NCBI RefSeq assembly: GCF_003018115.1
Contig: NZ_CP027457.1
Direction: 5' to 3' (one strand)
DNA from: Escherichia coli
GTDB lineage: Bacteria > Pseudomonadota > Gammaproteobacteria > Enterobacterales > Enterobacteriaceae
DNA length: 64,000 nucleotides
Position numbers and translations under genes: made by a program. The notes under the pieces were generated by a model. The model ran no database searches. It was not told the DNA's origin and saw nothing but the letters and a program-made list of their open reading frames with translations. This document shows, in pieces, positions 13,205-39,285 of the stretch (positions are counted from its first letter, which is position 1; every line of letters starts with the position of its first letter).

Positions 13205-14755
13205 ATGCCCACTTCTCATGAAAATGCACTGCAACAACGTTGCCAGCAAATTGTCACCAGCCCAGTGCTTAGCCCGGAGCAGAAGCGCCATTTTCTGGCA
13301 CTGGAAGCAGAAAACAATCTGCCTTACCCACAGCTTCCTGCCGAAGCCCGCCGCGCGCTGGATGAAGGTGTAATCTGCGATATGTTTGAAGGTCATGCGC
13401 CGTACAAACCGCGCTATGTCTTACCCGATTACGCCCGTTTTCTGGCGAACGGTTCCGAATGGCTGGAGCTGGAAGGCGCGAAAGATCTTGATGACGCACT
13501 CTCTCTGCTGACCATTCTTTACCACCACGTACCGTCGGTCACATCGATGCCGGTCTACCTGGGGCAACTGGATGCGTTGTTGCAACCGTATGTTAGAATT
13601 CTAACACAAGACGAGATCGATGTTCGAATAAAACGTTTCTGGCGTTACCTCGACAGAACCCTGCCAGACGCCTTTATGCACGCCAATATCGGCCCGTCTG
13701 ATTCGCCCATTACCCGCGCGATCTTACGTGCAGACGCAGAGTTGAAGCAGGTTTCACCGAACCTGACCTTTATCTACGATCCTGAAATCACCCCTGATGA
13801 CCTGCTGCTGGAAGTGGCGAAGAACATCTGTGAATGTAGCAAACCGCACATCGCCAACGGTCCGGTGCATGATAAAATTTTCACAAAAGGGGGCTACGGG
13901 ATTGTGAGCTGTTACAACTCACTGCCGCTGGCGGGTGGTGGCAGCACGCTGGTACGCCTTAACCTGAAAGCCATTGCCGAGCGCAGCGAATCGCTGGATG
14001 ACTTCTTTACGCGCACTCTACCGCACTACTGCCAGCAGCAGATCGCCATCATCGATGCGCGGTGTGAATTCCTCTATCAACAATCACACTTCTTTGAGAA
14101 TAGCTTCCTGGTGAAAGAAGGGCTGATTAACCCTGAACGTTTTGTGCCAATGTTTGGCATGTATGGGCTGGCGGAAGCGGTTAACTTGCTGTGTGAGAAA
14201 GAAGGGATTGCCGCGCGCTACGGTAAAGAAGCCGCCGCAAATGAAGTGGGTTATCGCATCAGCGCGCAACTGGCGGAGTTTGTCGCCAATACCCCCGTGA
14301 AATATGGCTGGCAAAAACGCGCCATGTTACACGCACAGTCGGGGATCAGTTCCGATATCGGCACCACGCCGGGCGCGCGTTTGCCGTATGGCGATGAGCC
14401 AGATCCGATCACCCATCTGCAAACTGTCGCCCCGCATCATGCTTATTATTATTCCGGCATCAGCGACATTCTGACGCTCGACGAAACCATCAAACGTAAC
14501 CCGCAGGCACTGGTACAGCTTTGCCTCGGTGCCTTTAAAGCCGGAATGCGTGAATTTACCGCCAATGTCAGCGGTAACGATCTGGTTCGCGTTACCGGTT
14601 ATATGGTGCGTTTGTCGGATTTAGAAAAATATCGCGCCGAAGGTTCACGCACCAACACCACCTGGCTGGGCGAAGAAGCCGCACGCAACACTCGTATTCT
14701 GGAACGCCAGCCGCGCGTGATAAGCCATGAACAGCAGATGCGCTTTAGTCAGTAA
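13205..14755 (+). CDS. yjjI: YjjI, glycyl-radical-enzyme family protein of unknown substrate (516 aa)
   Basis: ORF track 516 aa; C-terminal glycyl radical-type motif RVTGYMVRL; divergent from deoC. Confidence 0.9.
13591..13606 (-). promoter_or_regulatory. DeoR operator O1 at deoP1
   Basis: perfect 16-bp palindrome TGTTAGAATTCTAACA exactly 599 bp upstream of O2. Confidence 0.7.
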
Positions 14756-35645: not shown

Positions 35646-37007
35646 GTGGAAAAAGAAAATATCACCCTCGATCCGCGTTCTTCATTTACTCCATCTTCGT
35701 CGGCAGATATTCCCGTGCCACCAGATGGATTAGTTCAACGCAGTACCCGAATTAAACGCATTCAAACCACCGCCATGTTGTTATTATTTTTTGCGGCGGT
35801 AATCAATTATCTCGACCGCAGTTCGCTGTCGGTAGCAAATTTAACGATTCGTGAAGAATTGGGATTAAGTGCCACCGAAATCGGCGCTTTGCTCTCCGTG
35901 TTTTCACTCGCTTACGGCATTGCGCAACTTCCTTGCGGCCCACTATTAGATCGTAAAGGCCCACGCCTGATGCTGGGACTGGGGATGTTCTTCTGGTCAC
36001 TGTTCCAGGCCATGTCTGGCATGGTGCACAGCTTTACGCAGTTCGTGTTGGTGCGTATCGGTATGGGGATTGGTGAAGCGCCGATGAACCCATGCGGTGT
36101 AAAAGTCATTAACGACTGGTTCAACATCAAAGAGCGCGGACGCCCGATGGGCTTCTTCAACGCAGCTTCTACCATTGGCGTTGCCGTAAGCCCACCGATT
36201 CTGGCGGCGATGATGCTGGTGATGGGCTGGCGCGGGATGTTTATTACCATTGGTGTACTGGGGATTTTTCTCGCCATCGGCTGGTATATGCTCTATCGCA
36301 ACCGCGAGCACGTAGAACTGACTGCCGTTGAACAAGCTTATCTCAATGCAGGTAGCGTCAATGCCCGCCGAGATCCGCTCAGTTTTGCCGAATGGCGCAG
36401 CCTGTTCCGTAACCGCACAATGTGGGGAATGATGCTCGGATTCAGTGGCATCAACTACACTGCGTGGCTGTACCTAGCCTGGCTTCCTGGTTACCTGCAA
36501 ACAGCCTATAACCTGGATTTAAAAAGCACAGGGTTGATGGCGGCTATCCCTTTCCTGTTTGGGGCTGCCGGGATGCTGGTCAACGGCTACGTTACTGACT
36601 GGCTGGTCAAAGGGGGAATGGCTCCGATTAAAAGCCGTAAGATCTGCATTATTGCCGGGATGTTCTGTTCTGCCGCCTTTACGCTGATAGTACCACAAGC
36701 GACAACATCCATGATGGCGGTTCTGCTGATTGGCATGGCACTGTTCTGTATTCACTTTGCCGGAACATCCTGCTGGGGCTTGATCCACGTCGCAGTTGCT
36801 TCTCGCATGACTGCGTCGGTGGGCAGTATCCAGAACTTTGCCAGCTTCATCTGCGCCTCTTTCGCGCCGATCATTACTGGTTTTATTGTTGATACAACCC
36901 ACTCATTCCGTCTGGCACTAATCATTTGCGGTTGCGTCACCGCAGCGGGAGCACTGGCGTACATCTTCCTGGTTCGTCAGCCGATCAACGACCCGCGTAA
37001 AGATTAA
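35646..37007 (+). CDS. lgoT: MFS L-galactonate:H+ symporter LgoT (453 aa, GTG start)
   Basis: ORF track 453 aa; 12-TM MFS pattern. Confidence 0.92.
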   Translation: MEKENITLDPRSSFTPSSSADIPVPPDGLVQRSTRIKRIQTTAMLLLFFAAVINYLDRSSLSVANLTIREELGLSATEIGALLSVFSLAYGIAQLPCGPLLDRKGPRLMLGLGMFFWSLFQAMSGMVHSFTQFVLVRIGMGIGEAPMNPCGVKVINDWFNIKERGRPMGFFNAASTIGVAVSPPILAAMMLVMGWRGMFITIGVLGIFLAIGWYMLYRNREHVELTAVEQAYLNAGSVNARRDPLSFAEWRSLFRNRTMWGMMLGFSGINYTAWLYLAWLPGYLQTAYNLDLKSTGLMAAIPFLFGAAGMLVNGYVTDWLVKGGMAPIKSRKICIIAGMFCSAAFTLIVPQATTSMMAVLLIGMALFCIHFAGTSCWGLIHVAVASRMTASVGSIQNFASFICASFAPIITGFIVDTTHSFRLALIICGCVTAAGALAYIFLVRQPINDPRKD

Positions 37008-37016
37008 ACTCCCTAT

Positions 37017-37048
37017 GCCCGATAACATTTTGCTTATCGGGCATTTTT
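37017..37048 (+). terminator. rho-independent terminator between convergent lgoT and tsr
   Basis: GCCCGATAA / TTATCGGGC stem (37017-37025 / 37034-37042) followed by TTTTT. Confidence 0.7.
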
Positions 37049-37055
37049 ATGGCGA

Positions 37056-38720
37056 TTAAAACGTTTCCCAGTTCTCCCCGCTATCTGCCACTGCCATTTT
37101 ACGCGGCGTAGCTGGCGTCACGGTTTTTACCACAGCCGATGTTTCACGCTGCTGTTGCTGCTGTTGCTGAATCCGGAACACTGCCACAGCTTCGGTCAGG
37201 CGACTGGCCTGCTCTTCCAGCGCGGCGGCGGCGGCGGCAGATTCTTCCACCAGCGCGGCGTTCTGTTGAGTTACCCGGTCCATCTCAGCAACCGCTAAGC
37301 CAACCTGATCGATACCACGGCTCTGCTCATCAGAAGCAGAAGCTATTTCGCCCATAATGTCCGTCACGCGGGTCACAGCACTGACAATCTCCGCCATTGT
37401 TTCCCCGGCGCTTTCGACCAGCGTAGAGCCAACATCCACTTTCCCCACCGAGTCTTCAATCAGGCTTTTAATTTCACGAGCCGCCTGGGCGCTACGCTGG
37501 GCCAGATTACGCACTTCTCCCGCAACCACCGCAAAACCACGTCCTTGCTCACCCGCACGCGCTGCTTCAACCGCCGCGTTCAAAGCCAGAATATTGGTCT
37601 GGAAGGCAATGCCGTCAATTACGCTGATAATATCGGCGATTTTCTGCGAACTGGTGGAGATATCACGCATAGTCTGCACCACGTTATCTACCACTTTGCC
37701 GCCGCGTTGCGCCGTTTCAGAAGCACTTAACGCCAGGTGGCTGGCCTGGCGCGCATTCTCGGCGTTCTGTTTCACCGTTGCGGTCAGTTGCTCCATGCTG
37801 GCTGCCGTCTCTTCCAGCGAAGCGGCCTGTTGCTCGGTGCGCGAAGAGAGATCGTTATTGCCGGTGGCGATTTCGCTGGCACCGCTATAAATGGCATTGG
37901 CCCCGTTGCGCACATCACCGACGGTACGCATCAGCTCTCCCTGCATATGGCGCAAACTCTCTGCCAGTTGCCCCATCTCATTAGAGCCATCCACCTCAAT
38001 CGGTTTCACCAGATCGCCGCCTGCAATATGACGAATGCTGTCAATCAGGCGATTCATTGGCGCTACCAGCGAGGCTTTAATACCGAACCAGACGGCGAAG
38101 ATGACCGCCAGTACGACGATCATCACGCCCACCAGAATCCACATCGCCTGGCTGTAGGAGGCATTGTTATCGCTGACGGCGATATCATAGAGCCGATCGT
38201 TTTGCTCCATGTAAGCCACATACTGCTTCTCGAAACCGTCTTGATATCCCTGAGTCGGCTGATCAAAGAACTCGTTGATTTTGCCTGCACCTAACAGTTG
38301 GATCAGCTCCGCCAGCGCATTGTGATAAATATCGTAATTACGTTTGATCTCTGCCGCTGCGGCGGTGCTCTGACGCGGGTCACGCGGCAACGCTTCGTAA
38401 TCCGCCCAGTTTTTTTCCGCCTGTTTCAGCGAAATACTGGCACTCTGCATCAGCTCAGCAACGGTTGAACCGCTACCAATATTATTCTGATCCATCATGT
38501 AGCGGATACCCGCGCGGTTGAGGGTGTTACGCGTCTGCAACAACGCGACCCAGCTGCCATTCAGCGTGGATTGCTGCTGGCGAATGGTTTGTAAAACAGT
38601 GAAATTTTCTTTGTCATTCTTTAAGGCATTAAAGAACAGACCGCCTGATGTCAGTTGTAAAAGGCCAAAAACGGCCAAAACCAGCAGTAAGCTGGTCACG
38701 ATCTTGATACGTTTTAACAT
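37056..38720 (-). CDS. tsr: serine methyl-accepting chemotaxis protein Tsr (554 aa)
   Basis: ORF track; periplasmic domain, HAMP, methylation sites, C-terminal NWETF pentapeptide. Confidence 0.95.
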
Positions 38721-38838
38721 GGTTTCTCTTTCCTGTGGACCGATGCAAGATTTTCGGCCTGGAAAGCAAAAACTTTATGAAAAGGTGTAACCCGCCATCC
38801 ATGGAAAAACCAGGCGCTGGTTATCAGATACTAAAAAG

Positions 38839-39285
38839 TTATTCATTATCGCCCGGGATGTCTTCTTGTCGGGAATTGCCCAGAGCAATAAATTCCTCTA
38901 ACAGATGGGTTAACTGTTGCATTTTCTCGGCAGTAAACTGAGCTTCAATCTGCCGATAGGCTTCTTCAATCTGTGTCTGGGCGCGGTTATACAGCGCCTG
39001 CCCCTCTTTGGTTAGCGAGATATAGAGCTTCCGCTGATCATTGATCGGCTTTAATCGCAACACTAAACCGTCGCGTTCCATCCGCGTGAGGATCCCGGTC
39101 AGGCTTGGGCGCAAAATGCAGGCGCGATACGCCAGATCGTGAAAATCCATTGATGGGCTTTCCGCCAGAATACGCACGATGCGCCACTGTTGCTCAGTCA
39201 AATTATGCCGTTTAACGATTGGGCGAAAATAACTCATCGCCGCTTCTCGCGCCTGGAGCAACGCAATGGTTAGTGAGTCGTGCAT
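38839..39285 (-). CDS. hpaR: MarR-family repressor HpaR of the hpa meta-cleavage operon (148 aa)
   Basis: ORF track; start at internal ATG giving MHDSLTIALLQAREAAMSYFRP; MarR winged HTH. Confidence 0.88.
   Translation of the reverse strand: MHDSLTIALLQAREAAMSYFRPIVKRHNLTEQQWRIVRILAESPSMDFHDLAYRACILRPSLTGILTRMERDGLVLRLKPINDQRKLYISLTKEGQALYNRAQTQIEEAYRQIEAQFTAEKMQQLTHLLEEFIALGNSRQEDIPGDNE

Follow-up and report, generated by a model that had tools for sequence, protein, structure and literature searches.

When direct repeats misalign by slippage, short in-frame tandem repeats in coding sequence gain or lose copies. Engineered linker-length variants of the chemoreceptor Tar were reportedly described by Li and Hazelbauer in 2006. 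In Tar, when the linker is changed to 22, 29, or 46 residues, the distribution of tethered CheR shifts its peak by 0.128 ± 0.048 nm for each residue, and adaptation imprecision is altered as well (PMC10561060). The corresponding tether of the K-12 serine chemoreceptor, Tsr, comprises 30 residues counted from I517; it is shorter than that of Tar (34 residues), which is said to match the closer methylation sites of Tsr (PMC10561060). Across pentapeptide-bearing receptors, linker length varies between 29 and 91 residues, without conserved sequence (bioRxiv 10.1101/2024.03.07.583918).

Here, we describe a natural series of Tsr tether lengths in Escherichia coli. Like the engineered Tar variants (22, 29, 34, and 46 residues; PMC10561060), the series concerns an unstructured arm of varying length that ends in NWETF and tethers CheR and CheB. 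The Tar variants, however, are laboratory deletions or insertions adjoining the pentapeptide, whereas the Tsr variation is natural, lies at the base of the arm, and proceeds in three-glutamine steps. The tract also resembles coding variable-number tandem repeats (VNTRs), or minisatellite-like loci, in its perfect head-to-tail units, whole-unit alleles, and recurrence across haplotypes. It is unlike hypervariable VNTRs in having 1.3 to 4.3 copies, an apparently slow rate of change, and fixation within clones.

We analyzed a 64,000-nucleotide stretch of E. coli DNA (assembly GCF_003018115.1, contig NZ_CP027457.1), hereafter the window. Its features are listed in Table 1.

Table 1. Features at the tsr locus of the window.
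Feature	Coordinates	Strand	Description and basis
tsr coding sequence, 554 codons + stop	37056..38720	-	Serine chemoreceptor / methyl-accepting chemotaxis protein I; ORF, domains, equivalog, identity
Glutamine tract Q518-Q524	37149..37169	-	2.33 copies of 9-nt CAGCAACAG, equivalently CAG(CAACAGCAG)x2; translation and Tandem Repeats Finder
C-terminal tether I517-E549, 33 residues (30 in K-12)	37074..37172	-	Coordinates from the ORF; start at I517 per PMC10561060
NWETF pentapeptide, residues 550-554	37059..37073	-	Translation (ends ...SGENWETF); role per PMC7390727
Hairpin, 11 pairs then T-run	37015..37044		Terminator-like, by consensus match only; between the lgoT stop (37007) and the tsr stop (37056)

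Judged from its sequence, the ORF is Tsr, a normal and intact receptor. It matches the NCBIfam equivalog NF011615, a 554-position model of the same length as the window protein, from position 1 to 554 at 1225.5 bits (cut-off 947). Other NCBIfam models score lower, each below its own cut-off: Tar at 752.5 (<900), the citrate transducer at 710.5 (<900), and Tap at 527.3 (<903). The Pfam domain order is PF02203 TarH (1-176), PF00672 HAMP (217-263), and PF00015 MCPsignal (327-484). The protein is WP_000919571.1, which O157:H7 NE 1092-2 also carries, and annotated tsr was matched in 5,385 genomes. Orthology with K-12 tsr is indicated by 99% identity and by lgoT and lgoR lying downstream in both genomes. 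From that identity to the characterized K-12 protein, the window Tsr is expected to sense serine and to undergo CheR/CheB-dependent adaptation.

Gene order in the window is hpaR, tsr, lgoT, lgoR. Both sides of tsr (38721-39285 and 35646-37007) vary in gene content among E. coli. Upstream lie hpaR and the hpa operon in the window, BL21, HS, and O26; btsT directly in K-12, ST131, and LF82; and a MurR-family regulator with a solute symporter in Z142-3, 99-3165, and 2014C-3075. Downstream lies either lgoT-lgoR or a TRAP transporter operon (O26, NC101, LF82, and the strains with 13 glutamine codons). The hairpin falls within the 48 bp that separate the stops of the convergent lgoT and tsr genes and is probably a shared bidirectional terminator. 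In E. coli E110019, tsr (2468-4123 of its locus) contains an internal stop and carries a pseudogene annotation, and ~41-44 of 5,426 complete genomes lack a full-length match to tsr. Thus, loss of Tsr does occur, although it is rare (under 1%).

K-12 Tsr (b4355, NP_418775.1) shares with the window Tsr its position by lgoT-lgoR, the TarH-HAMP-MCPsignal order, and the terminal NWETF. It differs in having one 9-nt unit fewer, a tether of 30 rather than 33 residues, and four substitutions (E92Q, H178Y, A535T, and E545G, in K-12 numbering). The two proteins are otherwise identical (547 of 554 positions), the only gap being the three residues of the glutamine tract. The first-pass annotation had set a 554-residue Tsr against 551 residues for K-12; both lengths are correct, and the three-residue excess is the glutamine tract. 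A K-12 Tsr of the same tract and length is ruled out, since K-12 MG1655 tsr is 1656 bp, encodes 551 aa, and carries CAG CAA CAG CAG (QQQQ). At the DNA level, one 9-bp gap is the sole length difference: K-12 reads ATT CAG CAA CAG CAG CGT, with 1.33 copies of CAGCAACAG, and the window reads ATT CAG CAA CAG CAG CAA CAG CAG CGT, with 2.33. The methylation helices show zero substitutions between the two proteins, and the window Tsr therefore retains the methylation sites known from K-12.

One of the four substitutions adjoins the docking site. Residue G548 (37077-37079, minus strand; E545 in K-12) gives SGENWETF in the window versus SEENWETF in K-12, two residues before the pentapeptide, and removes one negative charge from an acidic segment. 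Glycine occurs here in O157, O26, and ST131, and glutamate in K-12, HS, LF82, and E. whittamii; both are common among 21 genes compared.

The seven-glutamine run noted in the first reading of the window is present, encoded on the minus strand by CAG CAA CAG CAG CAA CAG CAG. Both CAG and CAA are used, as that reading held, but they do not strictly alternate; they form 2.33 copies of CAGCAACAG. Tandem Repeats Finder reports a repeat at 37148-37169 with period 9, 2.4 copies, 100% matches, and a score of 44, and gives a period-3 alternative with 78% matches and a score of 30. Seven-glutamine runs are expected by chance at ~3e-6, with glutamine making up 6.6% of the remaining protein. Chance therefore does not account for the run. 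The tract opens the C-terminal tail and does not adjoin NWETF: it occupies residues 518-524, 25 residues upstream of 550-554. It begins at the base of the tether; residue 517, directly before it, is the last one conserved in the signaling domain.

To place the window allele within the species, we used 5,426 complete E. coli genomes; the 3' part of tsr is present in 5,382 of them. A 123-nt query centered on the seven-codon tract matched 4,059 genomes at or above the 95% identity threshold and 1,323 more at 90-95%; sampled members of the former set were all ungapped over a 123-nt span. A synthetic ten-codon query agreed, placing exactly 4,059 genomes in the band with one 9-nt gap. The seven-codon form thus accounts for ~75% of the 5,382 genomes. 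Samples spaced evenly through the match rankings gave 43 genes of 1665 bp to 16 of 1656 bp, and 47 tracts of seven-codon to 13 of four-codon length. Divergent seven-codon alleles, such as QQEQQRQ, may add up to ~70-80 genomes outside the 4,059. Identity-band arithmetic, which provides bounds only, puts the four-codon (K-12) form at ~1,130-1,210 genomes (about 21-23%) and the ten-codon form at 60 to ~120 (about 1-2%). At least 60 genomes matched the ten-codon query over its exact 132-nt span, including HS, LF82, NRG 857C, O104:H21, and A0 34/86. Three genomes (RM14723, A13, and Z1323HEC0355) carry a thirteen-codon form, with a 141-nt span and a 560-aa Tsr. The window allele is therefore the ordinary majority form, and K-12 carries a less common one.

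Synthetic five-, six-, and eight-codon queries found no alleles of those lengths among the 5,382 genomes. Queries with four codons (50 nt), five codons, and one codon were confounded, as the BLAST alignment broke in two at the tract and its pieces were rejoined at ~100% identity; their results are used only through record spans and band arithmetic. A one-codon allele is excluded indirectly, by the identical counts of 4,059 from the seven- and ten-codon queries. The alignment across strains that the first-pass annotation had proposed as a check thus reveals alleles of 4, 7, 10, and 13 codons.

We extracted 21 tsr genes to compare allele sequences, gene tree, and haplotypes. All tracts are CAG(CAACAGCAG)n, where n = 1, 2, 3, or 4, or a point-mutated version thereof: QQQQQHQ in 2014C-3075, QQQQQQQQHQ in A25, and QQEQQRQ in the divergent 99-3165. 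Alleles across E. coli accordingly hold 1.33, 2.33, 3.33, or 4.33 copies of CAGCAACAG. Genealogy was assessed with a neighbor-joining tree in which the tract was masked, together with SNP haplotypes covering 300 nt to each side of it. Phylogroup labels were left out as evidence, being absent from the records, and some strain names were unreliable (a 4.69-Mb "042" and DSM 30083).

Ten-codon alleles occur on at least four flanking haplotypes (HS, O104:H21, LF82, and A25). In the tree, the HS allele adjoins the K-12-type clade and the O104:H21 allele adjoins the window/O157 type. Two backgrounds carry four-codon alleles (the K-12 type and Z142-3), and the three thirteen-codon alleles group with the ten-codon allele of LF82. 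The presence of ten- and four-codon alleles on several haplotypes indicates that copy number changed repeatedly, and the simplest reading would be repeated gain and loss of 9-nt units. The alternative to recurrent mutation is recombination with breakpoints very near the tract. Here, the tsr region of DSM 30083 differs from that of K-12 at 5 of 7,812 sites, demonstrating that haplotypes are mobile or shared.

The tsr regions of NZ_CP033092.2 (DSM 30083 = ATCC 11775) and K-12 MG1655 each show 76 differences from NC101 over 4,133 sites. DSM 30083 and K-12 are usually assigned to different phylogroups. Their closeness at tsr is unexpected and suggests a shared or transferred segment.

The direction of change was assessed from the gene tree and a single non-coli Escherichia outgroup, E. 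whittamii. Its tsr is ~9% divergent over the last 550 nt, and its tract has nine codons, CAG CAG ACG CAA CAG CAG CAA CAG CAG (QQTQQQQQQ). Because this tract is long, HS (sister to the K-12 clade) has ten codons, and other lineages have at least seven, long tracts are taken to be old, and the four-glutamine tract of K-12 is most simply read as a derived contraction. E. whittamii was the only Escherichia returned by a one-genome-per-species scan with the flanking pattern GTGTTYCGNATH-N{9,39}-CGNGARACNTCNGC, which also gave seven unrelated chance matches and no E. albertii, E. fergusonii, E. marmotae, or Salmonella. The pattern fits K-12 and DSM 30083, yet the scan gave no E. coli, which was either absent from the collection or missed. 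The best 120 entries of a protein search were all near-identical E. coli or Shigella sequences, with no outgroups.

We consider it very likely that the window carries the ordinary, commonest allele of a 9-nt in-frame repeat polymorphism that arises by slipped misalignment and is near-neutral, leaving the receptor intact. Natural Tsr tethers measure 30 (K-12), 33 (the window and most E. coli), 36, and 39 residues. Extrapolating the 0.128 nm per residue reported for Tar, three Tsr residues would correspond to ~0.4 nm on ~10 nm. Because glutamine carries no charge, the added residues should preserve the charge pattern that has been reported in linkers of this kind. Three-glutamine steps would be near-neutral variation in a segment that tolerates changes of length and sequence. 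An effect of three residues on CheR/CheB docking and adaptation, which the first reading had raised, would be reasonable to expect from the linker-length experiments on Tar, but it is probably slight.

The added glutamines might instead extend the last helix of the signaling bundle. Each three-glutamine step would add nearly one helical turn (~0.45 nm) and shift the point near the HAMP-bundle junction at which the tether exits, with no gain in slack. PDB chains stop at different points here: the 1QU7 chain reaches residue 520 and thus holds Q518-Q520, whereas the 8c5v model ends at 516. A single-sequence AlphaFold2 model is helical through residue 531, but it is unreliable (mean pLDDT 52, pTM 0.31), and the literature, including PMC10561060, treats residues from 517 onward as non-conserved or flexible. 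We regard helix extension as possible but doubtful. It is compatible with near-neutral repeat polymorphism, as it would alter geometry only.

A less probable explanation is adaptive tuning, whereby the series of 30, 33, 36, and 39 residues would be kept or repeatedly selected for its effect on the reach of CheR and CheB to the methylation sites. Adaptation speed or precision would then be set differently across lineages or niches. In Tar, linker length moves the CheR profile linearly and changes adaptation imprecision (PMC10561060), but those experiments changed 5-12 residues, and only ~0.4 nm is predicted for three. The ten-codon form appears to have arisen repeatedly on different haplotypes, including those of the gut-associated LF82, NRG 857C, HS, and mouse isolates, but allele classes mostly track the gene genealogy, and the listed hosts show no obvious association with host or pathotype. 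Again, all the alleles seen are in frame and have at least four codons, but in-frame steps follow from the 9-nt unit, and selection is unnecessary. Tuning is therefore unlikely in our judgment. Slightly more speculative is the specific proposal that the series retunes the speed or precision of serine/AI-2 adaptation, with longer arms favored in certain lineages adapted to the gut (LF82/NRG 857C, HS, and mouse isolates). If this were true, the tract would be a simple evolutionary adjuster of the sensory time constant, and the K-12 "wild type" of quantitative chemotaxis models would be a short-arm minority form.

For a near-neutral repeat polymorphism, the proposed mechanism is slipped-strand mispairing between direct repeats during replication, which would add or remove whole 9-nt units and so produce tracts of 4, 7, 10, or 13 glutamines. 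When the strands of the seven-codon allele shift by 9 nt, 12 nt remain perfectly homologous; when they shift by 3 nt, CAGCAG alone can pair, because CAA interrupts every third codon. This difference in homology can explain why only 9-nt steps are seen. Neither single strand of the tract exceeds its shuffled controls in folding (z = -0.36 and 0.15), so slippage needs no hairpin, and we reject a hairpin-driven version of it. Copy number has most likely changed by slipped misalignment. The locus has the properties of a coding tandem-repeat VNTR, with at least two head-to-tail copies, whole-unit alleles, and recurrence of the same allele (for which recombination is the alternative). The first-pass annotation was thus right that the tract varies in length among strains through its repeats, but the slipping unit is 9 nt, or three codons, and not a single CAG or CAA.

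We considered whether the tract might be a hypermutable CAG/CAA triplet or contingency locus, changing codon by codon at a high rate within lineages. It is a simple-sequence tract and can be read with period 3, but that reading matches at only 78% of positions, against 100% for period 9. No five-, six-, or eight-codon alleles were found in 5,382 genomes, assemblies of the same strain are identical (HS ×4, LF82 ×2, and strain 8178 ×3), no hairpin exceeds shuffled sequences, and all changes are in frame, with no on/off switching. Such a locus is highly improbable. Clones are likewise uniform: every sampled O157:H7 genome has seven codons, and every sampled K-12 derivative has four. Over laboratory and clonal timescales, the tract is stable. 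A phase-variation contingency locus is rejected because the 9-nt unit is always in frame and the sampled clones show no variation. A CAG-triplet polyglutamine expansion tract is rejected because CAA stands at every third codon, alleles differing by one codon were not found, and the strands are not hairpin prone. The tract is neither a typing-grade hypervariable locus nor a phase-variation switch. A sequencing or assembly artefact in the window tract can be practically dismissed: some technologies do miscall short repeats, but the 21-nt tract recurs in ~4,059 complete genomes that were assembled independently, of which three are 100% identical to the window over the whole annotated tsr gene, and the collinear E. 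coli F8111-1SC3 agrees at 13,663 of 13,665 bases around tsr (2 mismatches).

Other repeats and duplications occur in Tsr. A six-alanine run, A495-A500 (37221-37238, minus strand), is encoded by a GCN triplet repeat (GCG × 5.7 in Tandem Repeats Finder). It is flanked by E493 and E502, which are methylation sites in K-12. Five alanines (553 aa) or eight (556 aa, five contigs) occur in rare variants from the database. The alanine repeat slips too, and a change of register in the coiled-coil helix should matter. Two single-record E. coli variants retain the seven glutamines: one of 570 aa with a 16-residue tandem duplication in HAMP, and one of 568 aa with a 14-residue tandem duplication in the first methylation helix. 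Both are probably mutants with lost or changed function, or errors.

The feature is already known and ordinary, and our analysis is a minor population-genetic refinement. The 554-aa Tsr is annotated in thousands of genomes and is the basis of the NCBI model, and the alleles are plain in RefSeq annotations. A full-text literature search found no paper describing repeat polymorphism in tsr, and its only match to the tail sequence was the K-12 form (PMC10561060).

For the genome that contains the window, the tract is of little consequence, as the receptor is intact and the allele is the commonest one. For the study of chemotaxis, however, the "wild-type" Tsr of K-12/RP437 (551 aa, 30-residue tether) is the form found less often in nature. 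In most E. coli, the Tsr tether has 33 residues, which is near the 34 of Tar. Thus, the argument that Tsr has the shorter linker (PMC10561060) is weakened, since it draws on a minority allele. The natural series of 4, 7, 10, and 13 glutamines could be used for models of tether length without engineered sequences.
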